DNA from: Clostridia bacterium
GTDB taxonomy: Bacteria > Bacillota > Clostridia > UMGS1883
Length of the DNA: 64,000 nucleotides
Assembly (NCBI GenBank): GCA_045545055.1
Contig: JAZQAB010000070.1
Span: 131 to 64,130 of the forward strand
Direction: 5' to 3'
The notes under the pieces are model-generated. The model saw only the letters and a list, made by a program, of their open reading frames with translations, was not told the origin of the DNA and did not search any database. The translations under genes were made by a program, and so were the position numbers. Numbering within the stretch: the first letter of the stretch is position 1; each line of letters opens with the position of its first letter. Positions 17,413 through 64,000 of this stretch are shown here, piece by piece.

Positions 17413-17518
17413 CGATGTAAGAAAAAGAGGTTGCAGGTATCTTTTGAGATCTGCGACCTCTAATCTATTGAAAAATGCGGTGGGATGTGGTATAATATAG
17501 GAGGTTGGACAGACCGAT
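17401..17518 (+). repeat. A-type junction element copy 2
   Basis: It starts with ATGTGGATATGACGATGTAA, the 3' end of the DUF4314-like gene read in another frame, so dcm terminates inside the repeat. TTGAAA 17468-17473, TATAAT 17491-17496. Confidence 0.8.
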
Positions 17519-17582
17519 AAGAACTTTTAAAGCAGCCTGAAAAATATATTCAGAATGATTAAGTTAACAAAAGGAGAATATT

Positions 17583-18074: not shown

Positions 18075-18159
18075 ATAATGCTTTTGTTGTCGGTAAATTG
18101 TTTGTCAATGTCTTCAACAAAACACTATTTATGGATCAATAATTTTGACTAAATCGCCA

Positions 18160-18255
18160 AATTCCAATATATCGAACTGAATATGATTACATAGCCGTTT
18201 GTGACTAACAATCACAGACGGCTTTTTCTATGCCCAAAACAGAAAAAGAGGAGGT
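18160..18255 (+). repeat. B-type junction element copy 2
   Basis: AATTCCAATATATCGAACTGAATATGATTACAT, hairpin 18193-18223, T-run, then GAGGAGG RBS. Confidence 0.8.
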
Positions 18256-18264
18256 GACACCCGT

Positions 18265-18417
18265 ATGATGCATCTTTTCGTAGGAATGCTCCTCGGCATC
18301 CTTGTAGGACTTGCCGTAGGCAGTGCCTGTGCGTCCCTTGCATGGGCAAAGGCAGAAATCCGCAGACTCAAGCGTGAGCTTAGAAAGGAATATGGCTATG
18401 CAGACGAGCAGAAGTAA
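18265..18417 (+). CDS. 50-aa single-TM protein (below the ORF-track cutoff)
   Basis: GAGGAGG RBS 7 nt upstream. MMHLFVGMLLGILVGLAVGSACASLAWAKAEIRRLKRELRKEYGYADEQK, translated by hand. Confidence 0.45.
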   Translation: MMHLFVGMLLGILVGLAVGSACASLAWAKAEIRRLKRELRKEYGYADEQK

Positions 18418-18595
18418 GACGAAACCCCACTACACCTTCACCGACAGCAGCATTCCCGTGATGCTCCGCAGCACAAAGGCTCTGCTTTCCCATAAGCAGT
18501 ACAAGAACCTGTGCATTGCGGTCAACGAAGCCGAAGGCTATCACGAGAAGAAGAAAGTCATCTTCCGCTGCATCGAACCCGTCATCCGTAAATAA
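18392..18595 (+). CDS. small basic hypothetical protein
   Basis: Internal ATG of track ORF 18323..18595, after AGGAA. It overlaps the end of the previous small ORF. Confidence 0.4.
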   Translation: MAMQTSRSKTKPHYTFTDSSIPVMLRSTKALLSHKQYKNLCIAVNEAEGYHEKKKVIFRCIEPVIRK

Positions 18596-18701
18596 GTAAA
18601 GGTCGTTTTGCCAACAGCAGAAATTTTCTGTTGCTTGCAAAGCGACTTTTGTTGCCTGTACGCTCCTTCTGCTGTTGGTATAAACGGCAGAAAGGAAACG
18701 A

Positions 18702-19541
18702 ATGAACAGTTTTATGTCATGGGTAGGCGGCAAGAAGTCACTGCGTGATGCAGTGCTTGCAAGATTTCCTCCCTATTATGAACGATATATCGAAGTATTC
18801 GGCGGTGCAGGCTGGGTATTGTTCCATAAGCCGCCCGGCAACGACTTCGAGGTTTACAACGATTTTAACAGCAATCTGGTAAATCTGTACCGCTGTGTCA
18901 GAGATAACCCCAACAAGCTGAAATACAAGCTGAGATATGTCCTTGACTCCCGTCAGGACTTCGAATGGATTGCAAGCCTGCACAAGCGTGGGCTTTTCCC
19001 GAGATTTCGGGATTATGACAGAGCTGCGAAGTTTTATCAGCTTGTCAGATACAGCTATGCAAGCGGGCTTGACAGCTTCGGCAGTCAGCCACATTCTATC
19101 TGGTCGGACTTCCCTATGATAGATATGGCAGCTCGCAGATTGCAAAAGGTTGTGATTGAAAACAAAGACTTTGAAAAGCTCATAAGGCAGTATGACCGCC
19201 CTGTGAGCTTTTTTTATTGCGATCCGCCCTATTTTGCAACGGAGAACTATTACAAGGATGTAGGTTTCACGACGAAAGACCACATCAGACTGCGAGATAC
19301 CTTGCTCAGCATTTCGGGAAAGTTCCTTGTTTCCTACAATGATTGCCCCGAAATCCGTGAGCTGTGGGATAAACCCGGCATCTATATTGAGGAAATCAGC
19401 AGAATCAACAACCTTGCACAGCGATATGACGGCGGATGTCAGTATGCCGAGCTGTTAATTTCAAACTACGACACAAGTGAAAGAGCAAAGATGGCACGTC
19501 AGCTGTCTTTTTTTGATGAGAATGGAGGCTTGATAGAATGA
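18702..19541 (+). CDS. dam: DNA adenine (N6) methyltransferase, Dam/D12 class (orphan)
   Basis: N-terminal SWVGGKKSL. AdoMet motif EVFGGAGWV. Catalytic DPPY in FFYCDPPYFATENYY. Confidence 0.88.
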   Translation: MNSFMSWVGGKKSLRDAVLARFPPYYERYIEVFGGAGWVLFHKPPGNDFEVYNDFNSNLVNLYRCVRDNPNKLKYKLRYVLDSRQDFEWIASLHKRGLFPRFRDYDRAAKFYQLVRYSYASGLDSFGSQPHSIWSDFPMIDMAARRLQKVVIENKDFEKLIRQYDRPVSFFYCDPPYFATENYYKDVGFTTKDHIRLRDTLLSISGKFLVSYNDCPEIRELWDKPGIYIEEISRINNLAQRYDGGCQYAELLISNYDTSERAKMARQLSFFDENGGLIE

Positions 19542-19825
19542 ATGATACAAATATTGTGTACACCAAGGGCTTTGTCAATGACGATGGCTGCATTGAAATC
19601 CCCGGTGTGTTTCTTGAAGATGGTGCAGAGGTAGATCTCGCCATCAAAACAAAAGCAGGACGCTTTGAGATTGCGATGTTCCCGTCTGAGGATAATGAGG
19701 AATATCAGGAAATGCAGGACTGTGGTATTTCGGAGGAAGAAATCATGAGGGTGTGTTCCGCACACAATGACTGCTCTGAATGTCCGCTGAACGATTATTG
19801 TGGGGAGGAATTTGCTGATGAATAA
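19538..19825 (+). CDS. hypothetical acidic Cys-containing protein
   Basis: ATGA overlap with the dam stop. No family recognised. Confidence 0.5.
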   Translation: MNDTNIVYTKGFVNDDGCIEIPGVFLEDGAEVDLAIKTKAGRFEIAMFPSEDNEEYQEMQDCGISEEEIMRVCSAHNDCSECPLNDYCGEEFADE

Positions 19826-20081
19826 GATTTATCGCTTTCTCGGAAGAAATGGCAGAACTACAATTCCGATTCAGATTCGCCGTATGCTTAATATCGGCAG
19901 AGGCGACCTGATCGGATACAGCATTCAGGGCAATACCGTCGTTGTAACAAAGGAAAAGGTGTGCAACAACTGCAGAAAGGAACATGACTCTGTGCAGGAA
20001 ATGGCTGAACAGCTGACTCCGCAGGAACGCAGAGAAATGCTCTCCTATCTGATGAAGAAAGCAAGAAGGGAGAAATGCTGA
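19818..20081 (+). CDS. AbrB/MazE/SpoVT-fold DNA-binding protein
   Basis: ATG at 19818. GRNGRTTIPIQIRRMLNIGRGDLIGYSIQGNTVVVTKE fits the swapped-hairpin AbrB-type motif. Confidence 0.6.
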   Translation: MNKIYRFLGRNGRTTIPIQIRRMLNIGRGDLIGYSIQGNTVVVTKEKVCNNCRKEHDSVQEMAEQLTPQERREMLSYLMKKARREKC

Positions 20082-20800
20082 TGAAAATCCGAGTATTCCA
20101 GATTGATCACAAAAAGGACGAGAAGAACCTCGCCTTCCGTGATTACCGGACTGCCATTGCCAAGAACGGCAGAATCGATGAGTCCATCTATAAGCAGGTG
20201 TACGGCGGCGAAGTACCGTGCAGAACCCTTGAAGAAGTTTATGCCCTCTGCAATGGAGAGCATAAGCCTCTCGGATATATTGCAGAATCCATGTCGATCA
20301 GCAATGTGATTGAAGTCACCGATGATGTGAACCATTGCTGTTTTTATGTGGATTCTGTAGGCTTCCGCATGGTGGACTTTGACACATCAAAGGCTGACCA
20401 CAGTGATATGATGAGAATCCTCATTCTTGAAAACGAAAAAGTTCCATATGAAGCGGAAATCAGCCACGATATCCATGCAATGCAGAACGTGGTAGACGGT
20501 TCTATTGAGCCGATCTACTTCACACCCAAGGATGATGCTATCGTGTACTGCAACGACGAATTTCTCCTCCATGACTATGCACCAAACCGCTTTGTGGGAG
20601 AAATCCTTGTTCATGGCACGTTCTTTGTAGTCGGCAATACCAGAAACGACTATGGTGAATGGGAATCCTGTTCCCTTACTGAAGAACAGGTAGCGAAATA
20701 TATGCAGCAGTTCTGGGCATATCTCGTACCCATTGAGAAGCTCGAACAGCAGGAAGAAGAATGTGATGAGTCCGAGGATATCGGGCTTTCGCAGATATAA
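20075..20800 (+). CDS. YodL-like / DUF3846-like ICE protein
   Basis: N-terminal MKIRVFQIDHKKDEKNLAFRDY ... VYGGEV is YodL-like. The central MRILILENEKVPYEAEISHD ... VYCNDEF ... GTFFVVG is DUF3846-like. Both are from memory. Confidence 0.55.
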   Translation: MLMKIRVFQIDHKKDEKNLAFRDYRTAIAKNGRIDESIYKQVYGGEVPCRTLEEVYALCNGEHKPLGYIAESMSISNVIEVTDDVNHCCFYVDSVGFRMVDFDTSKADHSDMMRILILENEKVPYEAEISHDIHAMQNVVDGSIEPIYFTPKDDAIVYCNDEFLLHDYAPNRFVGEILVHGTFFVVGNTRNDYGEWESCSLTEEQVAKYMQQFWAYLVPIEKLEQQEEECDESEDIGLSQI

Positions 20801-48293: not shown

Positions 48294-50639
48294 GTGAAAA
48301 ATATGACGATATTGACAAAAAAGCAAATGTCCGAGGAGGATATCAAGCTCCAATATATTACCCCTGCCATTCTTGCAAAATGGGACAAGAGCAGAATTAC
48401 AATGGAAACCAAGATTACAGACGGTAAGATCTGTTTGAACGGCAACTTTGTGCATCGTGATAAGAAAAGTGCAAAGTATGCGGATTATGTCCTTTACTAT
48501 AACAGCAGCTTCCCAATTGCGATTGTAGAAGCAAAGGACAATAAGCACAGCGTTTCTTTTGGTTTGCAGCAGGCAATTACATATGCACAGATGATGGACG
48601 TGCCGTTTGTTTACAGCTCCAATGGTGACGCATTTTATGAACATGATATGCTCACAGGTATGGAACGAGAAATAGCTCTTTCTGATTTCCCCTCGCCGGA
48701 TGAGCTAATGGAACGATACAAAGCTGAAGCAAACGGAGGAAACGGTCTGTCAGTTAACGAGTTGACAGCCATGAGTCAGCCTTATTACTCAAGCCAAAAT
48801 ACTTATGAACCGAGATACTATCAGAGAGTTGCTGTCAACAGAACAGTGGACGCGGTTGCACGTGGTGATAACAGATTACTGCTTGTCATGGCAACTGGTA
48901 CAGGTAAGACTTATACGGCTTTCCAGATTGTGTTCCGTCTGCTTAAAAGCGGTATGAAACGGAAGATTTTGTATCTTGCTGACAGAAATATTCTTGTGGA
49001 TCAGTCGATTTCACAGGACTTTGCACCGCTTGAGAAAGTTATTCACAAAATCAATGTGTCCAAGGATGATAAGACTACAATCACATCTCATCAGGTGTAT
49101 TTCTCTTTGTATCAGCAGCTTGTCGGAGATGATGACAAGGAACATTTCTCAGAGCTGTTCGACAAAGACTTCTTTGATCTGATTATTGTAGACGAGTGTC
49201 ATCGTGGCAGTGCAAAAGAAGATAGCCGTTGGCGCAGAATACTGGAATACTTTTCTTCTGCCACACAGATCGGCATGACTGCTACTCCAAAGGAAACGAC
49301 TTACACATCGAATATTACATATTTCGGAGAACCTGTCTACACCTATTCCCTCAAAAACGGAATTGAAGATGGATTCCTTGCCCCTTTCAAGGTAATTAGT
49401 ATTACTACAGACATTAGCGATGGCTGGCGACCGCTGAAAGGACAAAGAGATTATTATGGTAATGAGATTGAGGACAGAATATACAACAACACCGACTATG
49501 ACTACAATATCATTATTGCAGACCGCATCAACCAAGTAGCTCTTGAAATCACCAATTATCTGATCAACACTGACAGAATGCAGAAAACCATTGTGTTCTG
49601 TGCAACAGAGGATGCAGCAGAGCGAATGAGAGTTGCACTCGTTAAGCTGAATGCTGACATGGTTGCAAAAAATCCTGATTATATTGTTCGAATCACTGGT
49701 TCAGATACATATGGAAAAGAAAAACTTGATTACTTTATTTCAGTTTCTTCTCCATATCCCGTTATTGCAACGACCTCCAAGCTCCTCTCTACAGGAGCAG
49801 ACTGTAAGATGACTAAACTCATAGTTCTGGATGAGAATATCGGCTCAATGACGGAATTCAAGCAGATCATCGGCAGAGGTACAAGACTCCGTGAAAAGGA
49901 TGGAAAAACACATTTCGTGGTAATGGATTTCCGTAACATTTCAAGACTGTTCTATGATCCCGATTGGGACGGACCGGTTGAGGTTGATCCGAATTATCAT
50001 CCTCCCAAGCCAAAAGTTGGCCCGGATATTCCTGTAGATCCGCCCGAACCTCCGACAGATCCACAAGAAAAGCCCTATGTGGATGTGGATGGTTGTACAG
50101 TGCGAATCATCAACAAAGTTGTTTCTGTCTATGATGCGGACGGCAAGCTTCTGCGTCATGAAAATATCATAGATTACACCCGTACCAATATCTTGGGTGA
50201 ATATGCAGATCTGCAGCACTTCATCAGAAGCTGGAACAGTGAAGAGAAGAAAAAGACCATTCTGGAACTGTTCAAAGAGCATGGTATTGACCTGATGGCG
50301 TTGAAGGAATCGCAAGGAATGGAAGATGTGGATGTATTCGACTTTATCGTTCATGTTGCCTTCGACAAGAAACCGCTGACAAGAAAAGAACGTGCAAACG
50401 ATGTGAAAAAACGTGATTTCATCAGCAAATACAGCGGTATGGCACGAGAGGTTGTAGAAGCTCTGCTGGAAATGTACTGCAATGAGGGCATTGCACAGAT
50501 TGAAGATACACAGGTATTGAAACTTGATCCGTTCATCCGTATGGGTAAGCCCTCTGCCATTGTCAAGCTGTTTGGCGGTAAGGAAGGATATATGCAGGCC
50601 ATTCGTGAACTGGAAGAAGAAATTTACAAGGTGGTATAA
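48294..50639 (+). CDS. hsdR: Type I restriction enzyme R subunit
   Basis: N-terminal nuclease-type region (IAIVEAKD). Walker A MATGTGKT. DEAD-box IIVDECHRG. Helicase C motifs. Confidence 0.9.
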   Translation: MKNMTILTKKQMSEEDIKLQYITPAILAKWDKSRITMETKITDGKICLNGNFVHRDKKSAKYADYVLYYNSSFPIAIVEAKDNKHSVSFGLQQAITYAQMMDVPFVYSSNGDAFYEHDMLTGMEREIALSDFPSPDELMERYKAEANGGNGLSVNELTAMSQPYYSSQNTYEPRYYQRVAVNRTVDAVARGDNRLLLVMATGTGKTYTAFQIVFRLLKSGMKRKILYLADRNILVDQSISQDFAPLEKVIHKINVSKDDKTTITSHQVYFSLYQQLVGDDDKEHFSELFDKDFFDLIIVDECHRGSAKEDSRWRRILEYFSSATQIGMTATPKETTYTSNITYFGEPVYTYSLKNGIEDGFLAPFKVISITTDISDGWRPLKGQRDYYGNEIEDRIYNNTDYDYNIIIADRINQVALEITNYLINTDRMQKTIVFCATEDAAERMRVALVKLNADMVAKNPDYIVRITGSDTYGKEKLDYFISVSSPYPVIATTSKLLSTGADCKMTKLIVLDENIGSMTEFKQIIGRGTRLREKDGKTHFVVMDFRNISRLFYDPDWDGPVEVDPNYHPPKPKVGPDIPVDPPEPPTDPQEKPYVDVDGCTVRIINKVVSVYDADGKLLRHENIIDYTRTNILGEYADLQHFIRSWNSEEKKKTILELFKEHGIDLMALKESQGMEDVDVFDFIVHVAFDKKPLTRKERANDVKKRDFISKYSGMAREVVEALLEMYCNEGIAQIEDTQVLKLDPFIRMGKPSAIVKLFGGKEGYMQAIRELEEEIYKVV

Positions 50640-50642
50640 CAT

Positions 50643-52157
50643 ATGAGCAGTTTGGGTAATTTCGTAAAGAGATTACGGGATATTATGAGAAATGACGCTG
50701 GTATCAACGGTGATGCACAGCGTATTGAGCAGATTGCGTGGCTCTTGTTTTTGAAAATATACGATACAAAGGAAAATGATTGGGAAGTCGATGATGATAA
50801 CTATGAATCCATCATTCCAGAGGAATGTCGTTGGAGAAACTGGGCTGGTGTAGAAGATGAAAATAACAAAGGACATATTATAAATGAGAGTATGCTCATA
50901 ACGGGTGATGATTTACTTGAATTTGTTAATAACAAACTATTTCCTACATTGAAATCTATTGAAGTTACGAAATCTACACCAGTTCATAAAGCAATTGTTA
51001 AAACGACATTCGAAGATGCTAATAACTATATGAAAGACGGTGTTCTGTTACGGCAAGTTATCAATGTAATCGTACTATTAAGATTGGACAATTATGCCGA
51101 AAGCCACGCTTTCGGAGAAATCTACGAATCCATTCTGAAAGAACTGCAAAGTGCAGGTTCTGCAGGTGAATTCTATACGCCAAGAGCTGTGACGGATTTC
51201 ATGGCACAGATCATTAAGCCGAGAATTGGTGAGAAAATGGCGGACTTTGCCTGCGGTACAGGCGGATTTATTACAAGCTGGCTGAAAGCACTTGAACCGC
51301 AGAGAAAGACGGTCGAGGATATTGAAGCCTTTGATACTTCTGTTTATGGCATTGAGAAGAAGCAGTTCCCGTATATGCTGTGTGTGACAAATCTGCTTCT
51401 GCATAACATTGATACACCGAGAATCTACCATGATAATTCGCTCCTGTACGATGTACTGGACTATACGGAAGAAGATCAGTTTGATGTGGTGCTGATGAAT
51501 CCTCCCTACGGCGGCAGTGAAAAGGCGGAGGTCAAGAATCATTTCCCGACTGACCTTGCAAGCAGTGAAACTGCGGATCTGTTCATGTCCGTGATCATGT
51601 ATCGCTTGAAGCAGAACGGCAGAGCTGCAGTCATTCTCCCCGATGGTTTCTTGTTTGGCACAGATAATGCCAAAGTTGCGATCAAGAAGAAGCTGTTGGG
51701 TGAATTTAATCTGCACACGGTCATTCGTATGCCGCACAGCGTCTTTGCACCGTACACTTCCATTACAACAAATATCCTGTTCTTTGACAAGACAGGACCT
51801 ACCAAGGAAACATGGTTCTATCGTCTGGATATGCCTGATGGCTACAAGAACTTCTCAAAGACAAAGCCAATGAAGCTGGAACATTTTGCACCTGTCATGG
51901 AATGGTGGAATCAACGTGAGGAGATCACGGTGGACGGCTTCGACAAGGCAAAGAAATATACCGCTGCCGAGCTTGTAGAGCGTGGATATAATATTGACCT
52001 CTGTGATTTTCCGCATGAGGAGGAAGAAATTCTCCCGCCGAAGGAACTGATTCAGCAGTATCAGGAAAAGCGTGCAAGTCTGAATGCGGATATTGATCGG
52101 ATTCTGGCACAGATTACAGATATTCTTGGAATTTCGGATACGGAGGACTTGACATGA
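50643..52157 (+). CDS. hsdM: Type I R-M N6-adenine methyltransferase M subunit
   Basis: AdoMet motif DFACGTGGF. Catalytic NPPYGG. Confidence 0.92.
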   Translation: MSSLGNFVKRLRDIMRNDAGINGDAQRIEQIAWLLFLKIYDTKENDWEVDDDNYESIIPEECRWRNWAGVEDENNKGHIINESMLITGDDLLEFVNNKLFPTLKSIEVTKSTPVHKAIVKTTFEDANNYMKDGVLLRQVINVIVLLRLDNYAESHAFGEIYESILKELQSAGSAGEFYTPRAVTDFMAQIIKPRIGEKMADFACGTGGFITSWLKALEPQRKTVEDIEAFDTSVYGIEKKQFPYMLCVTNLLLHNIDTPRIYHDNSLLYDVLDYTEEDQFDVVLMNPPYGGSEKAEVKNHFPTDLASSETADLFMSVIMYRLKQNGRAAVILPDGFLFGTDNAKVAIKKKLLGEFNLHTVIRMPHSVFAPYTSITTNILFFDKTGPTKETWFYRLDMPDGYKNFSKTKPMKLEHFAPVMEWWNQREEITVDGFDKAKKYTAAELVERGYNIDLCDFPHEEEEILPPKELIQQYQEKRASLNADIDRILAQITDILGISDTEDLT

Positions 52158-53758
52158 CCGCACAGCAGTTAAAAAACTCTATCCTCCAGATGGCGGTACA
52201 GGGAAAACTCGTTCCGCAGGATCCAAATGACGAACCTGCCTCCGTCCTGCTTGAACGCATCAAGGCAGAAAAGCAGGAGCTGATTAAGGCTGGCAAGATC
52301 AAAAAGGACAAGAAAACTTCTGAAATTTTCCGTGGGGCTTCCCGTAATCTCCCTTATGCCTTTTGTGAGCAGGTAGGCAAGGAAATACGTGATATTTCGG
52401 ATGAAGTGCCGTTTGAGATTCCTGATTCGTGGGAGTGGGTAAGGTTAGGGAGCATTGTTTATAATCGAGGACAAATGAAACCTACTTCTGATTTCTGCTA
52501 TGTTGATATTGGCTCTATTGATAACAAAAATCAAAAATTAGGAAATATAGATAATATCATAACTCCTGATAAAGCCCCCTCACGAGCAAGGAAAATCATC
52601 GACATTGGTGACATTATTTATTCGACAGTTAGACCCTATCTTCATAATATGTGTATTATAGATAGGCAGTTTTCATTACAGCCAATTGCAAGTACTGGAT
52701 TTGCTGCAATGACTTGTTATGAGGGAATTTTCAATAAGTTCTTGTTTTATTATCTACTTGCCCCAGACTTCGATAATTACGCTAATGATACTGAAAATTC
52801 AAAAGGAGTTGCCTATCCTGCTATCAATGACGATAGGCTATATAAGGCACTTATCCCTATCCCACCTCTCCCCGAACAACACCGTATCGTCGCCAAAATA
52901 GAAGAACTTATTCCTTACATCGAAAAATACGCTCAAGTCGAAACGCAGCTCACCGCCCTCAACACTTCATTCCCAGAAGCCTTGAAAAAATCCATTCTGC
53001 AGGAAGCGGTACAGGGCAGACTTGTTCCGCAGGATCCCAATGATGAACCTGCATCCGTTCTGCTTGAACGTATCCGAGCCGAGAAACAGGCACTTGTCAA
53101 GGCAGGTAAGATCAAAAAAGACAAGCACGAATCGTTCATCGTGACTAGGGATAAAATTCCTTATGAGATCATCGACGGAAAAGAATGCTGTATAGCCGAT
53201 GAAGTGCCGTTTGAGATTCCGAAGGGGTGGTGTTGGTGTAGACTTGGTTCTATATCGTGGTATTTTGATGCAGGTAAAAGTCCAAATTGTATCAAACAGT
53301 CTGTAACTGGCGATGAATATGGTGTAATCACTACTACATCAATACAAATCGGCTACTTTCACGAAAAGCAAAACAAAGTATTACCGCCGAACTTTGAAGT
53401 CAACGAAGATATGAAAGTGAATAAAGGTGATATTCTTATCACCCGTGCCGGACCTATGAACAGGACAGGTGTTGCTTGCGTAGTAAAAAATATTCATTAC
53501 AACCTTATTCTTTCTGATAAGACAATAAGGATCAATATGTCGGACGAGTTATTTGATAAAGACTATATCGTTACCGTTCTCAACTCTCCAAATATCAGAG
53601 AGCAAATCATTGGATTGATGTCCGGTATGGATAAACAGCAAGTGAATATCTCGCAAGATAAGTATAAAACAGTATTTATCCCTCTTCCACCTCTTGCCGA
53701 GCAGAAGCGAATAGTCGAAAAGATAGAAGAACTTATGCAGTATTGTGACAAGCTATAA
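52154..53758 (+). CDS. hsdS: Type I R-M specificity subunit (expressed copy)
   Basis: ATGA overlap with hsdM. Two variable TRDs separated by conserved coiled-coil regions (AVQG(K/R)LVPQDPNDEPASVLLERI(K/R)AEKQ). Confidence 0.9.
   Translation: MTAQQLKNSILQMAVQGKLVPQDPNDEPASVLLERIKAEKQELIKAGKIKKDKKTSEIFRGASRNLPYAFCEQVGKEIRDISDEVPFEIPDSWEWVRLGSIVYNRGQMKPTSDFCYVDIGSIDNKNQKLGNIDNIITPDKAPSRARKIIDIGDIIYSTVRPYLHNMCIIDRQFSLQPIASTGFAAMTCYEGIFNKFLFYYLLAPDFDNYANDTENSKGVAYPAINDDRLYKALIPIPPLPEQHRIVAKIEELIPYIEKYAQVETQLTALNTSFPEALKKSILQEAVQGRLVPQDPNDEPASVLLERIRAEKQALVKAGKIKKDKHESFIVTRDKIPYEIIDGKECCIADEVPFEIPKGWCWCRLGSISWYFDAGKSPNCIKQSVTGDEYGVITTTSIQIGYFHEKQNKVLPPNFEVNEDMKVNKGDILITRAGPMNRTGVACVVKNIHYNLILSDKTIRINMSDELFDKDYIVTVLNSPNIREQIIGLMSGMDKQQVNISQDKYKTVFIPLPPLAEQKRIVEKIEELMQYCDKL
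52337..52440. repeat. hsdS inverted repeat 1, left copy (partner 55932-56035)
   Basis: 104 nt, with one mismatch to the reverse complement of the partner by direct comparison. Confidence 0.9.
52928..53247. repeat. hsdS inverted repeat 2, left copy (partner 55119-55438)
   Basis: About 320 nt. An imperfect reverse-complement match that encodes the central conserved region of both hsdS genes. Confidence 0.85.
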
Positions 53759-57378: not shown

Positions 57379-57993
57379 ATGCAGCATCAGAACACAGAAT
57401 ATTATAAATACATACTCAATTTCATTGAAGATTATAAAAGCAAGTTCGGAGAGTCTCCCTCATCACGAGAGATAGGAGAAGCATTGGGGATGCCAAAATC
57501 CACTCTTTCCAGGTATCTTGCCACAATGCGTAAAAACGGAATGCTTGAAATTGCGAATGCCCGTAACATCACTTTAAGCAAGAATAAACCACAGCAGGAA
57601 ATTGTCAATGCCCCGTTAGTTGGCAAGGTTGTATGTGGATTGCCTCAATATGCAGAAGAAAATGTACAGGAGCTTATCCCCTTTCCTGCTGCATATCTTG
57701 GTAAAGGCACATTCTTCGTACTTGAAGCTGATGGTGAATCAATGATTGAGGCAGGGATCGAACCCGGAGATTTGATTGTTGTACGTCAGCAAGCCACCGC
57801 AAATCCCGGAGATATCGTTGTAGCGTTAACAAGCACAACTGATTCTACTGCAACATTGAAACGCTATTATCCGGAACCAAAGATAAAGAAAATTCGATTG
57901 CACCCCGAAAACAGTGAAATGGAAGATCAGTATTATGATGATGTTATCATTCAGGGTGTTGCAATAAGGGTTTTGAAAAATGTAGAACAATAA
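57379..57993 (+). CDS. lexA: LexA-family self-cleaving repressor (S24 peptidase)
   Basis: N-terminal LexA wHTH (SSREIGEALGMPKSTLSRYLATMRKNGML). Cleavage-site region GKVVCGLP (Cys-Gly). Ser motif DGESMIEAGI. Lys motif ATLKRYY. Confidence 0.85.
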   Translation: MQHQNTEYYKYILNFIEDYKSKFGESPSSREIGEALGMPKSTLSRYLATMRKNGMLEIANARNITLSKNKPQQEIVNAPLVGKVVCGLPQYAEENVQELIPFPAAYLGKGTFFVLEADGESMIEAGIEPGDLIVVRQQATANPGDIVVALTSTTDSTATLKRYYPEPKIKKIRLHPENSEMEDQYYDDVIIQGVAIRVLKNVEQ

Positions 57994-58034
57994 GAAAAGA
58001 GGCTTCCATATTATATATTCAGGAGGTCAGGAGC

Positions 58035-58268
58035 ATGAAAAAGAAATTTCAGGAAAGAGAAGAAAAGATTCAGGCTGTTTATGCTATGATTAAAGATGCA
58101 TACGTTCAGCGTCGATATCCACCGTCTATCAGAGAAATCTGTCAGGAGCTTGGCATCAACTCGACCAGTACAATACATGCATATCTTACAGAACTTGAAA
58201 ACAGAGGGTTGATTATTGTACATCGTGGCGTAAACAGAGGCCTTATACTTGCTAAAAATGCAGTATAA
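58035..58268 (+). CDS. LexA DNA-binding-domain-only protein (77 aa)
   Basis: PPSIREICQELGINSTSTIHAYLTELENRGLI is a LexA-type wHTH. There is no S24 domain. Confidence 0.68.
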   Translation: MKKKFQEREEKIQAVYAMIKDAYVQRRYPPSIREICQELGINSTSTIHAYLTELENRGLIIVHRGVNRGLILAKNAV

Positions 58269-58302
58269 CCAAGAAATATTGAAAATGACAGGAGTGAAAT
58301 AG

Positions 58303-59037
58303 ATGAATAAACGAGTCCCACGTTTTCGCAATGTAGAAATTGATGAAATCTGCGAATGTCTTATCCGACAGCATAAGGGGAAGGCTTATGACACCCAACC
58401 CGTAGATATTGTAGACTTTGCAATTAATTACTTCAAGCTGAAGCTGATGTATGTTTCAATTGCAGAAAATGATCCGAATAAGCTCTCTTTTCTTGGCGAT
58501 GGTGTTACAGCAATCAAAGTATACTATCAGGGGAAAATTCAGTCTGTTTTGATTCCCGAAAAGACAATACTGCTGGATAAAGTTCTGAAATATCCGCATG
58601 AACGCAGTAGAAGATACTTCTGTATCGCCCATGAGGTCTTTCATTACATCGAATCTATTCTTACGAATTCACCTGTTGTTTCTGCTTATCACAGGGAGTT
58701 TGACAATAAGATGGAATATCCGTTGAAAGACCTTTCGGAAATGATGAGTTTCAGAGAATGTCAAGCTGACAGGGGTGCGGCAGCATTGCTGATGCCCTCA
58801 GCCCTTGTAAGAAATACCTGCCTGCAGTTTACCGACGGACGAAGTATATGCGTCTTCGGTGAAAATGTCTTTACATCGAAAGATAAAGAAATCCTACAGG
58901 ATATGGCAGAATATCTTGGTGTATCATACACCGCACTTACCATACGAATGAAACAGCTGAAGCTGCTTGAAAGGCATAGACTCGACGAATATATATCCAA
59001 CGAGCTTCATCTGAATAATGGGAAAGCTGGTGGATAA
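58303..59037 (+). CDS. ImmA/IrrE-family (M78-like) metallopeptidase
   Basis: FCIAHEVFHYI is an HExxH motif with a downstream ECQADRGAAALLMP segment typical of DUF955/ImmA. Confidence 0.78.
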   Translation: MNKRVPRFRNVEIDEICECLIRQHKGKAYDTQPVDIVDFAINYFKLKLMYVSIAENDPNKLSFLGDGVTAIKVYYQGKIQSVLIPEKTILLDKVLKYPHERSRRYFCIAHEVFHYIESILTNSPVVSAYHREFDNKMEYPLKDLSEMMSFRECQADRGAAALLMPSALVRNTCLQFTDGRSICVFGENVFTSKDKEILQDMAEYLGVSYTALTIRMKQLKLLERHRLDEYISNELHLNNGKAGG

Positions 59038-59294: not shown

Positions 59295-59590
59295 TAACTA
59301 TTACGATTTTTAATCGTGCAAGCGGAGAAGATTCATTAGAATCAGGCTGCCAAGCGCCGTACGAAACCGGATAGACAAGTTATAGTTACGCTATAGCTAT
59401 GTCTGTTTGTTTCTGCGGCGTTTTTTATTTGCACGATGGTTTCGTATAGCGTTAAAAGTCCTTTCTTCGTTTGACGAGGAAAGGACTTTTTTATGTTATT
59501 CACCTACCCTTGGCTGTGCATGACAGCAAAATATCCATAAGCCTTCGTTTTGATTCAACCAACAACAAGAAATCAAAACGGAGGTATAAC

Positions 59591-60109
59591 ATGAGCGTTA
59601 AGTATTTTGAATACAACACAAATCCAAACGGCGAAAAATACATGGAAGTAACCATGGAAGAATTCCAGAGAGATGTTATGGAAACCGAAGGAAGGTATTA
59701 CATTTCGTTTGGCACTTCTGTATTGGAATGCAGCTACGAGGATTATAAAAAAAATGATAAAGAAAAGAATCATTCTGACTATATCAGCAAAGATGCAAGT
59801 GGAAAGAAACCTGTGGTCATTTCCTTTGAGCAATACCGACTTGAAAAAGGTCAGGATATAACAGAAGTGATTGAGGACACAAACGTCAACGTCGAAAGCG
59901 AGTGTTATGAAAAATACCAATATGAGTTGCTTTACAAAGCACTTGCACAGCTTGATGAAGATGAACTTGAACTTGTGAAATCACTTTATTGGAATATGCT
60001 TTCACAACGTGAAGTAGGAGAATACAGTGGTGAAACTCAACAAAGTATCAGTAAGAAAAACAAAGCAATTTTGGAGAAACTCACAAACTTGATAAATTTC
60101 AAAAAATAG
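59591..60109 (+). CDS. sigma-70 region-4-like HTH protein (ICE regulatory)
   Basis: ATG at 59591 after GGAGG. C-terminal LSQREVGEYSGETQQSISKKNKAILEKL is a region-4-type HTH. Confidence 0.55.
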   Translation: MSVKYFEYNTNPNGEKYMEVTMEEFQRDVMETEGRYYISFGTSVLECSYEDYKKNDKEKNHSDYISKDASGKKPVVISFEQYRLEKGQDITEVIEDTNVNVESECYEKYQYELLYKALAQLDEDELELVKSLYWNMLSQREVGEYSGETQQSISKKNKAILEKLTNLINFKK

Positions 60110-60119
60110 TTGGTTGTGA

Positions 60120-60600
60120 AAACTCAATTTCATTGCTAGAGAAATATAGAGGGGCATGAACGAGATGCTCTTCTGAGAACCTTGAAAATTGAATATCAAC
60201 ACTTCGGTACGTCGTACTCCGATGATGGATGCGTTTCCGTCAGCTGAGATCTCCATACGCCATGACCTTGAAAGAGCGAGCGAGAAAATATGCGAAGATC
60301 AGCAAAGCAGTGCCAGCTTTGTAAGGCAATGAAAGTTGGGGTAAGGTACTTCCGTAAAAAGCGGCTTGGATGTTGTAGTCCAAGAGGCCCAGATCTATGT
60401 GATTGGTAAGGACGCCAATCAGCCGAAGTTGTTCCTTTTGCCGGCGGGGGCAGGAGCAATCCTGTCAGAGAATTTCCGGCACCTTCGATTTGAAGGAAAG
60501 TGTTGCTGCGTGTAGCAGCAGTGAAGTCACCCGGATGGGGTGGCATAAAGGTAAAACGACCTATAGCCGCCGTGTATAAAGCGGCGGCTGTTACATAGAA
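60120..60600 (+). ncRNA. candidate large structured RNA / leader upstream of mazF (class unknown)
   Basis: About 480 nt with no RBS-preceded plus-strand ORF and higher GC than its flanks by eye. At least 8 local hairpins, e.g. 60151-60171, 60365-60384, 60401-60420, 60440-60480 (enclosing 60451-60464), 60482-60496, 60504-60520 and 60565-60589. Confidence 0.4.
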
Positions 60601-60610
60601 AGGATTTACT

Positions 60611-60958
60611 ATGTATAGAAAACCAAGACGAGGTGATGTGTACTTTGCCAATATGAATGGAGCATCAGGCTCTGAGCAAAGCGGTATCCGACCTGTCGTC
60701 ATCATACAGAACGATAAAGGCAACTATTATTCGGATACCACAATCGTAGCAATGGTCACATCGAAACAAAAGAAAACAACCGCAGTCCATGTAACTCTGC
60801 ACAGCAAGGATATATTCAGCAGAAAGTCCTATGTACTGACAGAACAGCTCAGAACAATTACTATCAGCAGACTTGGTAAATTTATAGGGTTACTCAGCGG
60901 AAGTGATATGCGAAAAATTGATAAGGCTCTGAAAAAAAGCCTTGGACTAAATGAATGA
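60611..60958 (+). CDS. mazF: MazF/PemK-family endoribonuclease toxin
   Basis: RRGDVYFANMNGASGSEQSGIRPVVIIQND is the classic PemK/MazF N-terminal signature. AAAGGA RBS. Confidence 0.88.
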   Translation: MYRKPRRGDVYFANMNGASGSEQSGIRPVVIIQNDKGNYYSDTTIVAMVTSKQKKTTAVHVTLHSKDIFSRKSYVLTEQLRTITISRLGKFIGLLSGSDMRKIDKALKKSLGLNE

Positions 60959-62906
60959 AATGAGGAATGAAAATATGATACACTTGATAAAATATCCCCT
61001 TGATGAAACAGTAAAACGCTTCTTCAACGAATCCGCTGCAAAGGGATTTGAAATGCGTGAAGGACAAATGGAAATGGCAAACGAAATCTGTAATGCCATT
61101 ACTGAAAAAAGACCGCTTGCAGTAGAAGCGGAAGTAGGTATCGGTAAATCCTTTGCGTATCTTGTGCCTGCATTGATTCAGTTCTTCAGAGAACGCAGGC
61201 AGGTAATCATTGCAACATCTACAATTGCTTTGCAGGAGCAGTTATACCACGACGCACAGTCTGTTCTGAAAATGCTTGGTGTTCATGCAAATATAATTCT
61301 TGCAAAAGGCATGAAGAATTATGCCTGCATGAAACGAGTACATAGCTTGTACAGCCGTCATAAGGATGATATCTACTATGGTCGCTTGTGGCAGACCGTA
61401 AGAAACGGACAGCAGGATAAGGCTGAGATTACTATGAATATTTCTGATATGGAGTGGGCTAAGATCAGTATTTCCAATTTTGGAAAGGATCAGTGCAAAA
61501 GCTGTCCCTATACACGAAACTGTCAGTACCACAAAATGCGTTCTGCTCTTGTCTATGAAAGTGCAATAGTTATTTGCAATCAGAATATGCTGGTATCGCA
61601 TCTTATGAATCAGCAGAGAGGAAAAGGCTTGTTCAGCCCATCAGTCAATACTTTCATCATTGATGAAGCACATAACATCGAGAGTAAATTCAGAAGTGCA
61701 TATACCACAGCATACAGTAAATCAGACATCGTCAATGTAATAACCGATTCTGTAAAGAATACCCGAAATCCAATTTTAAAATCAAATGCCGAAGAAATCA
61801 TAATGGAACTGGAAGAATTGTTCCGTATGTTTAGAATACAGGTACAAAAGCAGGAATCCGAATCTGAGGGAGATGTGACCTCATTCTTTCTGGAAATGAA
61901 TAAGGATATCAGTGAACAGATTATTCTTATCAGAAGAAATCTTGCAACGCTGAATGCAAGGACGGAAAAGGACGCAGGAAAAATACTGCAGTTTCTGCGA
62001 GAAGTCTCCACCTATGCAAATGATAATCTTGTATGGCTTGAGAAAGATAAAAGGCTCAGACTATGCGTATGTCAGAAAGACATCCGCAAAGATATCTCAA
62101 AACTGCTCTTTTCACAAGGAAGATGTACCATTCTGACATCGGCAACGATTTCGGACAAGCAGACAGGAATGCCGAGAGAGAAGTGCAGTTATTATCTGAA
62201 CAGTATCGGATATCCTGTAATCGGAATGGTATCAGAACCGAAGAAATCCCCTTTTGATTACGATAATCACACAATGCTGTACTGTTCAAAAGGAATGCCA
62301 TATCCGAGCATTGAACACAGAAAACAATACAGGGCAGCTTCCATAGCAGAAATAGTCAAGCTCCTTGAAGTAACAAACGGCAAGACGCTGATTCTGTTCA
62401 CCTCAAAAGAAGATATGGAATATGTATACAAGAAGCTGAGTAATATGCAGCTGCCGTACAAGATACTGATGCAGAGCAAGACTTCATCGCAGGCATATCA
62501 GCTTGAGAAATTCAAGTCAGATACCAATTCCGTAATCCTCGGAACAGGAACCTATTGGGAGGGCATTAATGTAGAGGGCGAAAGCTTGTCACAGGTGATA
62601 ATATATAAACTCCCCTTCCCCGTGCCTGAACCAATTATTGACTATAAAATGTCGCTGACAGAGAACCCGATTGATGAGGTAGCAGTTCCCGAAATGGTAA
62701 TACAGCTCAAACAAGGCGTAGGCAGACTGATACGCTCCGCAAGTGATACAGGTATCGTAACAATACTTGATCCGAGAGTAAGCCTGCGAAAGGCAAAATA
62801 TGCAGATGTTGCACTTGATGCACTCTCTGTAAAAAACAGAGCTGACAGCATTGAAGAACTGCATACATTCTGGGATAAAATAACAAATGAAGGGAGTCAG
62901 AGATAA
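60951..62906 (+). CDS. DinG/XPD-like Fe-S superfamily 2 DNA helicase
   Basis: Walker A EAEVGIGKSFAY. Four-Cys cluster (C-x..-CKSCPYTRNC). DEAH box FIIDEAHN. C-terminal YWEGINV and QGVGRLIRS motifs. The start (60951, or 60975 after GAGGA) overlaps or abuts the mazF stop. Confidence 0.85.
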   Translation: MNEMRNENMIHLIKYPLDETVKRFFNESAAKGFEMREGQMEMANEICNAITEKRPLAVEAEVGIGKSFAYLVPALIQFFRERRQVIIATSTIALQEQLYHDAQSVLKMLGVHANIILAKGMKNYACMKRVHSLYSRHKDDIYYGRLWQTVRNGQQDKAEITMNISDMEWAKISISNFGKDQCKSCPYTRNCQYHKMRSALVYESAIVICNQNMLVSHLMNQQRGKGLFSPSVNTFIIDEAHNIESKFRSAYTTAYSKSDIVNVITDSVKNTRNPILKSNAEEIIMELEELFRMFRIQVQKQESESEGDVTSFFLEMNKDISEQIILIRRNLATLNARTEKDAGKILQFLREVSTYANDNLVWLEKDKRLRLCVCQKDIRKDISKLLFSQGRCTILTSATISDKQTGMPREKCSYYLNSIGYPVIGMVSEPKKSPFDYDNHTMLYCSKGMPYPSIEHRKQYRAASIAEIVKLLEVTNGKTLILFTSKEDMEYVYKKLSNMQLPYKILMQSKTSSQAYQLEKFKSDTNSVILGTGTYWEGINVEGESLSQVIIYKLPFPVPEPIIDYKMSLTENPIDEVAVPEMVIQLKQGVGRLIRSASDTGIVTILDPRVSLRKAKYADVALDALSVKNRADSIEELHTFWDKITNEGSQR

Positions 62907-63070
62907 TGAAAAAATATGGGCAAGCAGAGCTGATGTACGCACTGGTGCAGGTGTTCCTTGAAAACGAGGAACATCTTACCGAGCAGCAGAAAGCAGAGGT
63001 TGCAAAGAAAACAGCCACAGAAGTATTTGCAGAGTTTCCTTCTGCGCGAGATATGGAGGTTGCAGCATGA
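62906..63070 (+). CDS. 54-aa hypothetical protein (below the ORF-track cutoff)
   Basis: The ATG overlaps the helicase stop (TAATG). Translated by hand: MKKYGQAELMYALVQVFLENEEHLTEQQKAEV... Confidence 0.4.
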   Translation: MKKYGQAELMYALVQVFLENEEHLTEQQKAEVAKKTATEVFAEFPSARDMEVAA

Positions 63071-63186
63071 TTGGATTTATTATTGGGTGCATTGTAGGCG
63101 GTACGATTGGAGTAGTTGCCATGTGTTGCTGTATAGCAGGCAAAGAAGCGGACAAGCATATAGATTACACAGATTCCGACGAGTAA
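63067..63186 (+). CDS. 39-aa single-TM protein (DUF3789-like by memory)
   Basis: ATGA overlap with the previous ORF. MIGFIIGCIVGGTIGVVAMCCCIAGKEADKHIDYTDSDE. Confidence 0.45.
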   Translation: MIGFIIGCIVGGTIGVVAMCCCIAGKEADKHIDYTDSDE

Positions 63187-63264
63187 ATTTGTCCGGTTTG
63201 GTGATTCCAATTCACAGAGAAATGTGGTATTGTTGTAAGTAAAAAAGGAAAGGCAGGAGTAAGC

Positions 63265-64000
63265 ATGGCAACGATAACCGTGATACAACCGAGTATTATG
63301 ACCGAAACAGTGAAACGGCGAGTTGCCGCTTACTGCCGAGTCAGCTCAAGCAGCGAGGATCAGCTAAATTCTTATCAGGCACAGCTGACCTACTACAGCC
63401 ACAAGTTTGAGGATTCGGTCACAGAAGAACTTGTAGACCTGTATGCCGATGAAGGCATCACCGGTACCCGTGACGATAAGCGTGACGAGTTCCAAAGGCT
63501 CATGAAGGATTGCAGACGAGGAAAGATCGACAGAATCTACACCAAGTCCATCAGCCGATTCGCACGAAATACAAAGGACTGTCTTAAGAATATCAGAGAA
63601 CTGAAAGCTCTTGGGATTACAGTATTTTTCGAGAAAGAGAACATTGACACATCAAATATGACCGATGAAATAATGATTACAATCCTAGGTGGTTTGGCAC
63701 AAGAAGAATCGACTTCAATTTCAGCAAATATGAAATGGTCTTATCAAAAACAAATGGAAGAAGGTACTATCAACCATCATTCTGCTCCATATGGATATCA
63801 AATAAAAAATGGTGTTCTCGAAATCGTGCAGGAAGAAGCAGAAGTTGTAAGAAAAATATATGCCTTGTTTCTGAGTGGTTACGGATACATGGCTATTTGT
63901 CGGGAACTTAATAAAAGTTGTCAACCAAAAGATAAAAAAGGACATTGTTGGGCTGTTCCCGGAATTCAATACATCCTTACAAATGAAAGATACATTGGAG
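63265..64000 (+). CDS. large serine recombinase (partial, continues beyond the window)
   Basis: AAGGAAAGG RBS. RVAAYCRVSSSSEDQ catalytic Ser motif. Resolvase-domain motifs IDRIYTKSISRFARN and the E-helix. A recombinase-domain start follows (YGYQIKNGVLEIVQEEAEVVRKIY). Confidence 0.9.
   Translation, partial: MATITVIQPSIMTETVKRRVAAYCRVSSSSEDQLNSYQAQLTYYSHKFEDSVTEELVDLYADEGITGTRDDKRDEFQRLMKDCRRGKIDRIYTKSISRFARNTKDCLKNIRELKALGITVFFEKENIDTSNMTDEIMITILGGLAQEESTSISANMKWSYQKQMEEGTINHHSAPYGYQIKNGVLEIVQEEAEVVRKIYALFLSGYGYMAICRELNKSCQPKDKKGHCWAVPGIQYILTNERYIG

Follow-up and report, generated by a model that had tools for sequence, protein, structure and literature searches.

The pemK RNA motif (RF02913, Rfam type 'Cis-reg') has been listed as a candidate cis-regulatory RNA (Weinberg et al. 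2017, PMC5737381). Its Rfam model spans 61 positions. It is found 5' of pemK/mazF in mobile elements of Clostridia, more broadly 5' of pemK and further mobile-element genes in Firmicutes, and belongs to the numerous structured-RNA candidates still classed as orphans. An overlapping motif, dinG (RF03082), is classed as an sRNA by Rfam. Two kinds of toxin-antitoxin system also come close. In type III systems (ToxIN, AbiEi-independent RNA antitoxins), the RNase toxin gene stands right behind a structured non-coding RNA with tandem direct repeats, which the toxin processes and which is linked specifically to it; in type II MazEF/PemIK systems, the MazF/PemK toxin has an adjacent upstream mazE/pemI gene. 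A further parallel is the bipartite ConAn1/conAn2 antitermination system of pLS20 and other Gram-positive conjugative plasmids (PMC8191782), in which conAn2 is a leader RNA about 380 nt long, with an inverted repeat around about 240 nt and a small protein gene upstream.

We analysed a 64,000-nt stretch of Clostridia DNA (hereafter the window), which carries a Ruminococcus-type integrative and conjugative element (ICE) whose cargo includes a type I restriction-modification system. The original prediction had singled out an orphan mazF gene behind a hairpin-dense non-coding region, proposing for the latter an RNA antitoxin, a regulatory leader or a large non-coding RNA class of this ICE family. 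The last two are the reading that survives. The genes around the region are the following:

59588-60109, plus strand: small sigma-70 region-4-like gene (Sigma70_r4, Pfam E=6.6e-5), with ATG 59588 as the likely start
60110-60610, plus strand: non-coding gap of 501 nt between the sigma-like stop at 60109 and the mazF ATG at 60611
60196-60723, minus strand: antisense ORF of 175 aa
60611-60958, plus strand: mazF/pemK toxin gene, 115 aa, full-length PemK_toxin (PF02452, Pfam E=1.8e-28)
60975-62906, plus strand: DinG/XPD-like helicase, 643 aa from ATG 60975 (Pfam, L001 gene call, synteny)
62906-64000, plus strand: segment with a 54-aa ORF, followed by the two genes below
63067-63186, plus strand: DUF3789 ORF (Pfam)
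from 63265, plus strand: large serine recombinase (Resolvase, E=5e-32), truncated at 64000, where the window stops

The program-made ORF list starts the sigma-like ORF at TTG 59471. The two micro-ORFs and the recombinase are as predicted. The helicase is indeed DinG/XPD-like by Pfam (Helicase_C_2, E=3e-35; DEAD, E=3e-18; DEAD_2, E=6e-6), and the four cysteines visible in its insert (YAC...QCKSCPYTRNC) suggest that it binds an Fe-S cluster. The predicted length of 651 aa is probably too long: the most likely start is ATG 60975, 7 nt after the RBS GAGGAA, and the same start is called in L001, a 99%-identical locus. The overlap that had been noticed, between the mazF stop (60956-60958) and a possible start at ATG 60951, does exist; from the likelier start, however, the two genes are separated by 16 nt. 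Since the helicase has its own RBS and this spacer, the proposed translational coupling by overlap is doubtful. Typical relatives have mazF and then, after one small ORF, the recombinase.

MazF is 47-52% identical to the Enterococcus and Staphylococcus proteins. Among 22 relatives, R27 is invariant and T50 nearly so; we take these to be catalytic-type residues, by analogy with B. subtilis MazF, so the toxin is probably active. The gene is an orphan, as claimed: the upstream ORFs show no antitoxin domain or similarity, the downstream neighbour is the helicase, and 38 of the 80 related loci carrying the RNA also have mazF with no adjacent protein antitoxin. It thus shares the ordinary MazF/PemK fold with type II systems but lacks their upstream mazE/pemI, which canonical relatives from the same search do possess as RHH or MazE genes (L089/L090, L110). 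Elsewhere in the window, the ORF at 19818-20081, which the original prediction named as an alternative trans antitoxin and which may or may not act as one, does have a MazE/AbrB domain (E=5e-6), but it is coupled to a YodL/DUF3846 gene.

The gap before mazF proved to be much as first described. Its GC content is 0.49-0.525 over 60200-60700, against 0.33-0.42 in the flanking DNA, and its plus-strand ORFs are only 31-58 aa long. None of these has an antitoxin-type Pfam domain, and tblastn with MazE, RHH and AbrB antitoxins gave no match to the gap at E<=100; a mazE/pemI remnant was therefore not found by either search. The antisense ORF has no Pfam match, and no tandem repeat of the ToxI kind, at a score of at least 30, occurs in 60000-60700. 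The plus strand is much more stably folded than shuffled sequences (z=-5.4), the minus strand less markedly so (z=-2.7).

By homology, the region is a diverged, extended relative of the pemK RNA; the half-remembered pemK-associated motif of Firmicutes in the original prediction does exist, as RF02913. A search at the Rfam gathering threshold gave no match. In a permissive search, both overlapping models match the same place below threshold: RF02913 at 60341-60400 with 18.4 bits (E=1.1; threshold 34.8) and RF03082 at 60342-60396 with 16.8 bits (threshold 46.9). Other evidence, independent of the window-type sequences, ties the region to members that pass the threshold. The mazF relatives carry pemK RNAs of 50-74 bits at the same relative position, and L051 bridges the two forms: it aligns with the window leader, and its own pemK core scores 56 bits. 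A nhmmer profile of 56 family leaders, which passed the Rfam threshold or shared the full leader pattern and from which all window-type clades were excluded, has its sole match in the 64-kb window at 60170-60362 (E=4.7e-11). A covariance model of 30 relatives (R1), 25 of them shown to be above the Rfam threshold, has a single match, 60338-60468, in a search of 128 kb (E=0.0016, at only 18 bits). The architecture agrees as well, with a UACUUC lead-in, three successive hairpins within one closing pair and then AUG, in a leader 5' of mazF, and the flanks are homologous too. The window copy differs in having other sequence in place of the 5' AUAAUGA and of the P9 loop GGUGAAAUUCC, and in its three extra 3' hairpins. 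For the dinG motif, the likeness is the weak match at the pemK core and the DinG-like helicase gene downstream; the window score is far below threshold, and none of the relatives examined reaches it.

The comparison also indicates that the 61 positions of the Rfam motif cover no more than the core of the leader, here and in relatives, where the conserved element is about 400-470 nt long and includes P0, the box, P1-P6, P10 and the pseudoknot. In the window the leader is about 470 nt (about 60148-60615), in the same sense as mazF, and it is real, conserved and folded. Its parts are the following:

60148-60174, plus strand: P0, 10-bp hairpin (60148-60157/60165-60174) just 5' of the box, not followed by a U tract
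60182-60195, plus strand: 14-nt box TTGAAAATTGAATA, near-invariant as TTGAMAAnTGAATA, 2-4 nt 5' of helix P1
60198-60433, plus strand: 5' domain, closed by the long-range helix P1 (60198-60208/60422-60433) and enclosing about 10 helices, with compensatory changes by RNAalifold and a per-helix check
60215-60223/60335-60343, plus strand: P2, inside the P1 domain
60224-60228/60237-60241, plus strand: P2h, inside the P1 domain
60243-60245/60325-60327, plus strand: P3, inside the P1 domain
60248-60257/60289-60300, plus strand: P4, inside the P1 domain
60258-60282, plus strand: P5c and P5, inside the P1 domain
60303-60308/60316-60321, plus strand: P6, inside the P1 domain
60341-60400, plus strand: diverged pemK core within the P1 domain, UACUUCCG followed by P7, P8, P9 and then AUG
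60352-60355/60361-60364, plus strand: P7, CCGU/GCGG
60365-60371/60378-60384, plus strand: P8, CUUGGAU/GUCCAAG
60385-60387/60394-60396, plus strand: P9, AGG/UCU, with compensatory AGG/CCU and AGA/UCU in L002 and L003
60401-60406/60415-60420, plus strand: P10, inside the P1 domain
60432-60480, plus strand: probable pseudoknot domain, S2 (60440-60444/60476-60480) around hairpin P11 (60451-60455/60460-60464)
60432-60435 with 60446-60449, plus strand: putative S1, UUCC with GGGG, conserved and scarcely variable
60482-60496, plus strand: P12, window-type clades only, partly supported
60503-60521, plus strand: P13, window-type clades only, paired in 7 of 7 with differing sequences in four clades
60528-60542, plus strand: P14, window-type clades only, partly supported
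60553-60615, plus strand: 3' tail with conserved AAAACGA (60553-60559), P15, UACAU (60592-60596) and P16
60565-60572/60582-60589, plus strand: P15, 8-bp hairpin, no U tract
60592-60598/60609-60615, plus strand: P16, whose loop holds the RBS AAGGA (60600-60604) and whose stem includes the mazF AUG (60611-60613)

A hairpin occurs at the P0 position in every clade with differing sequence, its usual form being GUGAAGGGG...CCUUUCAC. The box is common to window-type, MazF-type and ParA-type leaders, and no sigma-70 promoter is predicted at it. P12-P14 are confined to the window-type, helicase-linked clades and absent from typical leaders. In P16, the mazF start codon is paired with the conserved UACAU, and the RBS stays in the loop. 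Of 65 leaders, 55 have UAC(A/U)U in the 3' tail, where it is as conserved as the RBS; a further UAC motif is the UACUUCC of the pemK core, and the first one lies inside helix P2. The motif is identical to U^ACAU, the site of Bacillus and Staphylococcus MazF.

The paired structure is maintained by covariation among the relatives. RNAalifold on five window-type clades finds compensatory changes in 34 of 68 pairs, and P2 and P3 are recovered in an alignment of 35 diverse sequences. Duplex energies of cognate and non-cognate P1 strands show that each P1 is specific to its own sequence (p=4e-13). Taking the core, P10 and S2 together over 66 sequences, the window included, 97.3% of the cells are paired, against 63.3% in shuffles; 24 of the 25 pairs have changed on both sides, and the covariation score of 0.84 drops to 0.12 or less when the partners are slid. 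The stem-loops named at the outset are real: the nested pair at 60440-60480 and 60451-60464 is S2 with P11, both kept by compensatory changes, and the stem at 60565-60589 is P15. S1 is conserved yet barely varies, so we infer it.

The gene that follows the leader is not always mazF. In an unbiased metagenome sample of 120 pattern-matched leader loci, 82 (about 70%) have a ParA-type gene (parA-parB) next and about 12 (about 10%) have mazF; others have serine recombinases, and the leader also heads recombinase genes with no mazF in the locus. It always lies directly 5' of the first operon gene, in the same orientation and abutting its RBS, and relatives were found exclusively in conjugative-element contexts. 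The leader is thus a general device of Clostridia conjugative elements, used before parA-parB, recombinase genes and mazF. Terminator-like hairpins precede the RBS in at least 17 of 65 relatives, and in those of the L044 type the P15 position is taken by a canonical terminator. As only about a quarter of relatives have a terminator, attenuation cannot be the universal read-out.

As to the nature of the element, our data support a conserved structured RNA rather than a gene in decay. This is where an antitoxin gene would usually be expected, and short ORFs are present; nevertheless, a degraded mazE/pemI, or chance hairpins of a GC-rich spacer, is scarcely credible and was rejected, since no antitoxin similarity was found, covariation is pervasive, and the leader is better conserved than mazF (93% identity to L002, against 83% for mazF DNA). 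Moreover, leader substitutions fall evenly on the codon phases (7/8/10), whereas third positions dominate in mazF (12/8/40), and the 'ORFs' in relatives' leaders are Arg-rich translations of RNA with GTG starts. The 77 G-U pairs against 10 A-C pairs, like the better fold of the plus strand, speak for an RNA made from the plus strand, although covariation alone cannot separate RNA from single-stranded DNA of the same strand because DNA tolerates G-T wobble. An origin of transfer, single-strand origin or single-strand promoter would suit an element restricted to conjugative contexts, many members of which have a perfect -35-like TTGACA inside the box. We still consider such a DNA element very unlikely: the box has no conserved complementary partner to rebuild a duplex promoter, the relaxase gene is 20 kb away, the element is always co-oriented with the genes behind it and stops at their RBS, and its multi-way junctions, pseudoknot and UNCG-type tetraloop (in P7 of ParA-type members) are typical of RNA architecture.

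Regarding function, a structured RNA directly before an RNase toxin with no protein antitoxin, here and in the 38 RNA-bearing relatives, a probably active MazF and the recurrent UAC(A/U)U motifs in tail and core together make a type III-like antitoxin or decoy tempting, as does a leader bound or cut by MazF for autoregulation. Because most leaders precede parA-parB and only about a tenth precede mazF, a dedicated MazF antidote is improbable. UACWU counts are alike in MazF-linked and ParA-linked leaders (2.27 and 2.52), no depletion of UACAU was found in the operon, the first UAC motif is within a helix and not in single-stranded RNA, and type III features are missing: there are no tandem repeats, the toxin has the MazF fold and not that of ToxN/AbiQ, and the RNA mostly occurs with no toxin gene at all. 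For the same reason, and given that the helicase follows mazF in few clades only, the suggested RNA-toxin-helicase trio is not supported as a functional unit. Equally improbable is a separate stable RNA, trans-acting, ribonucleoprotein-bound or ribozyme-like, that merely lies upstream. More than 15 helices, the probable pseudoknot and a wealth of unpaired yet invariant nucleotides (AUGAMAG, UACUUC, GAGCGAGAA, ACGCC, ACAAAUA) exceed the needs of a simple attenuator, and Rfam classes the dinG motif as an sRNA; however, the orientation is always that of the next gene, whose RBS the RNA abuts, and no terminator is predicted in the window leader or between the RNA and mazF. A complex RNA heading long conjugative-element operons, whatever the first gene, would fit a processive antiterminator equally well, one that modifies polymerase to read through terminators across ICE operons, like conAn2, EAR and put RNAs. 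Some relatives have terminators 3' of the leader, and the inverted repeat and upstream small gene of conAn2 resemble P1 and the small sigma-like gene, which recurs 5' of the leader in eight relatives (L010, L016, L034, L064, L069, L100, L106 and L115). We regard this possibility as doubtful: the upstream protein matches only Sigma70_r4 and not ConAn1 (PF17362), ParA-type loci have no conserved upstream partner gene, no plus-strand terminator to overcome is predicted in 60500-64000, and the hosts are Clostridia ICEs rather than Bacillus or Enterococcus plasmids.

We therefore favour, with a probability of about 0.55, a diverged, extended pemK-class leader that acts in cis as a gate of the mazF-helicase-recombinase operon. 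A cis regulator is probable because most relatives stand before partition or recombinase genes in conjugative elements, always 5' of and co-oriented with the first gene, and because P16 masks the AUG. We propose that the leader would act on mazF, the helicase, the two small ORFs and the serine recombinases of the ICE. Folding of the P1 and pseudoknot domains, perhaps upon ligand or protein binding, may set whether polymerase and ribosomes pass the 3' tail; the gate would be the P16 hairpin in the window, and in a subset of relatives a canonical intrinsic terminator located there would take its part. A riboswitch, with an aptamer coupled to its expression platform by mutually exclusive pairing, would be one form of this: a complex conserved domain is followed by a terminator in some relatives and by the AUG-masking hairpin in the window, but no alternative pairing between the conserved domains and the 3' hairpins emerged, and the gene context points to no ligand. 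The antitoxin-less MazF may be kept harmless by tight cis repression or by some other protein. A bolder and unlikely version is that the RNA, taken as about 450 nt with a pemK core, is a master switch of Clostridia conjugative elements, heading partition/transfer and excision operons, and that UACAU reads MazF-type RNase activity of the host or of the element's own MazF, thus coupling stress to excision, partition and toxin output without a protein antitoxin.

With about 100 relatives and the window, the catalogued motif becomes the mere centre of a larger, covarying multi-domain leader that heads maintenance and excision operons (parA-parB, mazF, serine recombinases) in widespread conjugative elements of gut and rumen Clostridia. 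Its boundaries, helices and invariant nucleotides are now defined for mutagenesis, the tempting RNA-antitoxin reading is argued against, and a MazF toxin subfamily with no adjacent antitoxin has been brought to light. These elements spread resistance and defence cargo; a shared RNA switch over their excision, if true, would be of practical interest.

The mazF toxin gene starts at 60611 and is separated by 501 nt from the stop (60109) of an upstream ORF, whose small protein product matches sigma-70 region 4. This gap holds only ORFs of 31-58 aa, none of which gave an antitoxin-type match in a domain search or resembled an RHH, MazE or AbrB antitoxin by tblastn (E<=100). The original prediction that no antitoxin ORF lies 5' of mazF is thus upheld, and so is its description of the gap: the GC content is 0.49-0.525 vs 0.33-0.42 in the surroundings, the stems at 60440-60480, 60451-60464 and 60565-60589 all exist, and a repeat search found no tandem repeat of the ToxI kind. 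A decayed antitoxin gene, which had been proposed as a check, finds no support, as tblastn gave no antitoxin remnant and the leader has no coding phase bias. The predicted RNA fold of the + strand has an energy of -179 kcal/mol (z=-5.4 vs shuffles), vs z=-2.7 for the - strand. The predicted overlap between the mazF stop and the helicase start does exist for an ATG at 60951; however, a GAGGAA ribosome-binding site with ATG 60975 agrees with the annotated start in a contig of 99% identity, so mazF and the DinG-like helicase gene are neighbours 16 nt apart. Further upstream, a strong intrinsic terminator (59454-59490, + strand; 17-bp stem plus U tract) sits at the start of the sigma-like ORF as annotated (TTG 59471); thus, the real start of this gene is probably ATG 59588, beginning a new transcription unit.

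The sequence of the gap is under stronger conservation than the toxin gene that follows it. Contigs encoding MazF relatives were retrieved and aligned to the leader, the structured RNA directly 5' of mazF, and 60111-60563 aligns throughout in loci with MazF 97%, 84%, 60%, 58%, 50% and 47% identical, mostly from Ruminococcus and Oscillospiraceae genomes of ruminant and other gut samples. Identity to the 84% clade is 93% for the leader and 83% for mazF DNA; substitutions in the leader are spread evenly by phase (7/8/10), and those in mazF gather at third codon positions (12/8/40). Plasmid and phage collections gave no blastn match to the 501 nt, and IMG/VR returned only unrelated 40%-identical MazFs with MazF as query and no match to the core pattern.

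The original prediction had suggested a pemK-associated motif and proposed an Rfam search. At the gathering threshold there was no match in the leader region; a permissive search placed pemK RNA (RF02913) at 60341-60400 with 18.4 bits, below the threshold of 34.8, and dinG RNA (RF03082) on the same 60 nt with 16.8 bits. Homology nevertheless follows from the relatives: mazF relatives carry above-threshold pemK RNAs (50-74 bits) at the equivalent relative position, and one locus, L051, combines an above-threshold pemK RNA with a leader alignable to that of the window along its length. A profile of 56 family leaders, from which every window-type (helicase-linked) clade was excluded, has a single window match at 60170-60362 (E=4.7e-11), and a covariance model from core to pseudoknot, built from 30 relatives (25 of these shown above the Rfam threshold), has a single match at 60338-60468 (18 bits, E about 0.002). 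We therefore class the window copy as a diverged homologue of pemK RNA and, since it falls below the curated cut-off, as a variant and not a plain member. The suggested motif was thus the right class at a sub-threshold score. This class is functionally uncharacterised; no function was found for it in the literature searched, which included work later than Weinberg 2017.

The element extends far beyond the Rfam motif, which forms its core. In all members, the order is a hairpin P0, the near-invariant box TTGAMAAnTGAATA (60182-60195 in the window), a long-range helix P1, nested helices P2-P6 with invariant ACGCC, GAGCGAGAA and AUGAMAG, the pemK core P7-P9, hairpin P10, the P1 return strand, a pseudoknot-type domain (UUCC...GGGG / S2, ACAAAUA loop), variable hairpins, a conserved UAC(A/U)U and then the ribosome-binding site. 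The sequence of P1 differs clade by clade, being AACACUUCGG/CCGAAGUUGUU in the window, AGGCGCUAAGG/CCUUAGCGCUU in L111 and CAUAUAGCAAAU/AGUUUGCUAUAUG in L058, and duplexes of cognate P1 strands are far more stable than those formed with strands of other leaders (p=4e-13). RNAalifold found compensatory changes in 34 of 68 pairs among 11 window-type sequences and recovered P2 and P3 from 35 diverse sequences, with one pair reading UA:17 CG:13 AU:2 UG:2. An initial alifold pairing of the 5' region with P7/P8 strands was dropped for P2/P3 once the 35 sequences and the ParA-type leaders had been aligned. Plain MAFFT alignments left the P1 3' strand, P4, P6, P8 and P14 out of register, and these were judged by eye or duplex energy. 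In a model-guided alignment of 66 sequences, the window among them, 97.3% of cells pair vs 63.3% in shuffles, both sides change in 24 of 25 pairs, and the covariation score is 0.84 vs <=0.12 with slid partners. G-U pairs exceed A-C pairs (77 vs 10), which indicates that folding takes place on the strand in sense with the downstream genes. The feature is real, beyond chance. Window-type clades have three extra hairpins (60482-60542), the best supported being P13 (7/7 paired, with different sequences in four clades).

The leader RNA is not specific to MazF. When metagenome contigs were scanned with a pattern of RNA features only (box, AUGAMAG, UACUUC), 120 loci were found, and the next gene was a ParA-type ATPase followed by parB in 82 and MazF in about 12; in others, a DUF3789 ORF or a serine recombinase came next. 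The Rfam pemK threshold was reached by 18 of 20 tested metagenome leaders. Typical MazF loci consist of leader, mazF, one small ORF and serine recombinase, and the helicase is inserted only in the clades of the window, L010, L033-35 and L037-39. The proposed module of RNA, RNase toxin and helicase is accordingly not supported. In L010-L014, the 58% clade, an IS110-family transposase on the opposite strand lies between mazF and helicase (L010:3242-4456), thus the two genes are not obligatorily coupled. In one relative (L003:1-2228 and 4454-6377), a truncated helicase of 428 aa has a NikA-like gene behind it, and TIR-domain and HEPN-domain genes lie 5' of the leader-mazF block, which thus adjoins defence-type genes. 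A gut-2 RNA (RF02990, 54.9 bits, above threshold) occurs at L010:1183-1230 and L015:1255-1302, in the L010 clade, where it lies 5' of the small sigma-like gene found ahead of the leader; the window has no match to it.

The 45 kb around the leader form an integrative conjugative element (ICE) with coupling protein, VirB4-like ATPase, MobL relaxase, primase, LPXTG adhesins, a LexA-like repressor and terminal serine recombinases. Features of the window in and around it are as follows.

4721-4793: tRNA gene (66 bits), about 10 kb ahead of the first element-like genes
16291-19541: orphan Dam-type and C5 DNA methyltransferases
48294-53758: type I restriction-modification cargo (HsdR, HsdM, HsdS), inside the ICE
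57379-57993: LexA-like S24 peptidase/HTH repressor, just 5' of the sigma-like gene
58303-59037: 244-aa candidate metalloprotease with an HEVFH motif and no Pfam match, just 5' of the sigma-like gene

The methyltransferase region may be the leading region of the ICE, and the tRNA gene may or may not mark its integration site. The layout of repressor and HEVFH protein (57379-59037) recalls ImmR/ImmA-type ICE control modules.

MazF is apparently active, judging from R27, invariant among relatives, and T50, nearly so. In 38 of 80 genome loci with a close MazF relative, the leader is present and no credible antitoxin lies upstream; RHH or MazE genes of the classical kind occur in the rest. The element shows one antitoxin-like fold only, the MazE/AbrB (SpoVT) domain (E=5e-6) of an 87-aa ORF at 19818-20081; this ORF overlaps a YodL/DUF3846 gene (20075-20800) at the latter's start and might be a trans partner of the distant mazF. 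Small ORFs abutting mazF in relatives were rejected as antitoxins: most are spurious translations of the RNA, and the 47-aa ORF of L010 belongs to no family. Those 3' of mazF are part of the recombinase module and occur without mazF too (e.g. L115), and the 54-aa ORF was rejected as a general antitoxin, being found only with the helicase clades and L051. Between mazF and the serine recombinase, beginning about 20 nt past the toxin gene, lie ORFs of 49-63 aa that form two conserved families:

L044:5347-5502, L047:1055-1234, L067:5348-5497 and others: first family, containing NNASFAYSVNLLRLL...ITKEEY
L041:2619-2810, L064, L069, L115: second family, containing NDCLVTVYFAKNRN, also present without mazF

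Both families may encode recombination directionality factors or other partners. In three low-GC relatives (L073:2609-2809, L074:4808-4999, L081:4811-5002), an ORF for a predicted membrane protein of 63-66 aa lies between a weakly scoring leader and mazF, where only the RNA is found elsewhere.

The leader lies directly 5' of the first gene of an operon, in the same sense, with a complex conserved fold and no coding capacity, which suggests a cis-acting role in controlling expression of the genes 3' of it. The original prediction of an RNA antitoxin is weakened, as most leaders are not MazF-linked and tandem repeats are absent. UACAU is the recognition sequence of Bacillus/Staphylococcus MazF; the conserved UACAU is present in ParA-type leaders as well, ParA-linked leaders have as many UACWU as MazF-linked ones, and the operon shows no depletion of the motif, so it was rejected as a MazF-specific feature. 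Covariation alone would be compatible with a single-stranded DNA element; the constant sense orientation argues against it, as does the box, which has no pairing partner. Nor does the box suit a sigma-70 promoter (no consistent -10) or a single-strand promoter arm (no complementary partner, and conservation running upstream into P0).

We favour a gating leader with a variable 3' read-out, given the terminator in some leaders and the masked AUG in the window. In window helix P16, the conserved UACAUAG (60592-60598) pairs with CUAUGUA (60609-60615), so that the mazF AUG is held in the stem and the ribosome-binding site is left in the loop; the 84% clade has the same pairing as AUACAU/AUGUAU. Where P15 lies in the window, one MazF clade has a canonical terminator, and a terminator-like hairpin occupies this site in at least 17 of 65 leaders (about 26%); none is predicted in the window leader, so a universal terminator-based attenuator was rejected. 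The conserved domains would gate translation initiation in the window and termination elsewhere. The main rival is a processive antitermination RNA like conAn2 of Gram-positive conjugative plasmids, which suits the indifference to which gene comes first, but the partner protein is absent here. The RNA class itself is already known; the larger architecture described here goes beyond the catalogued pemK RNA model.
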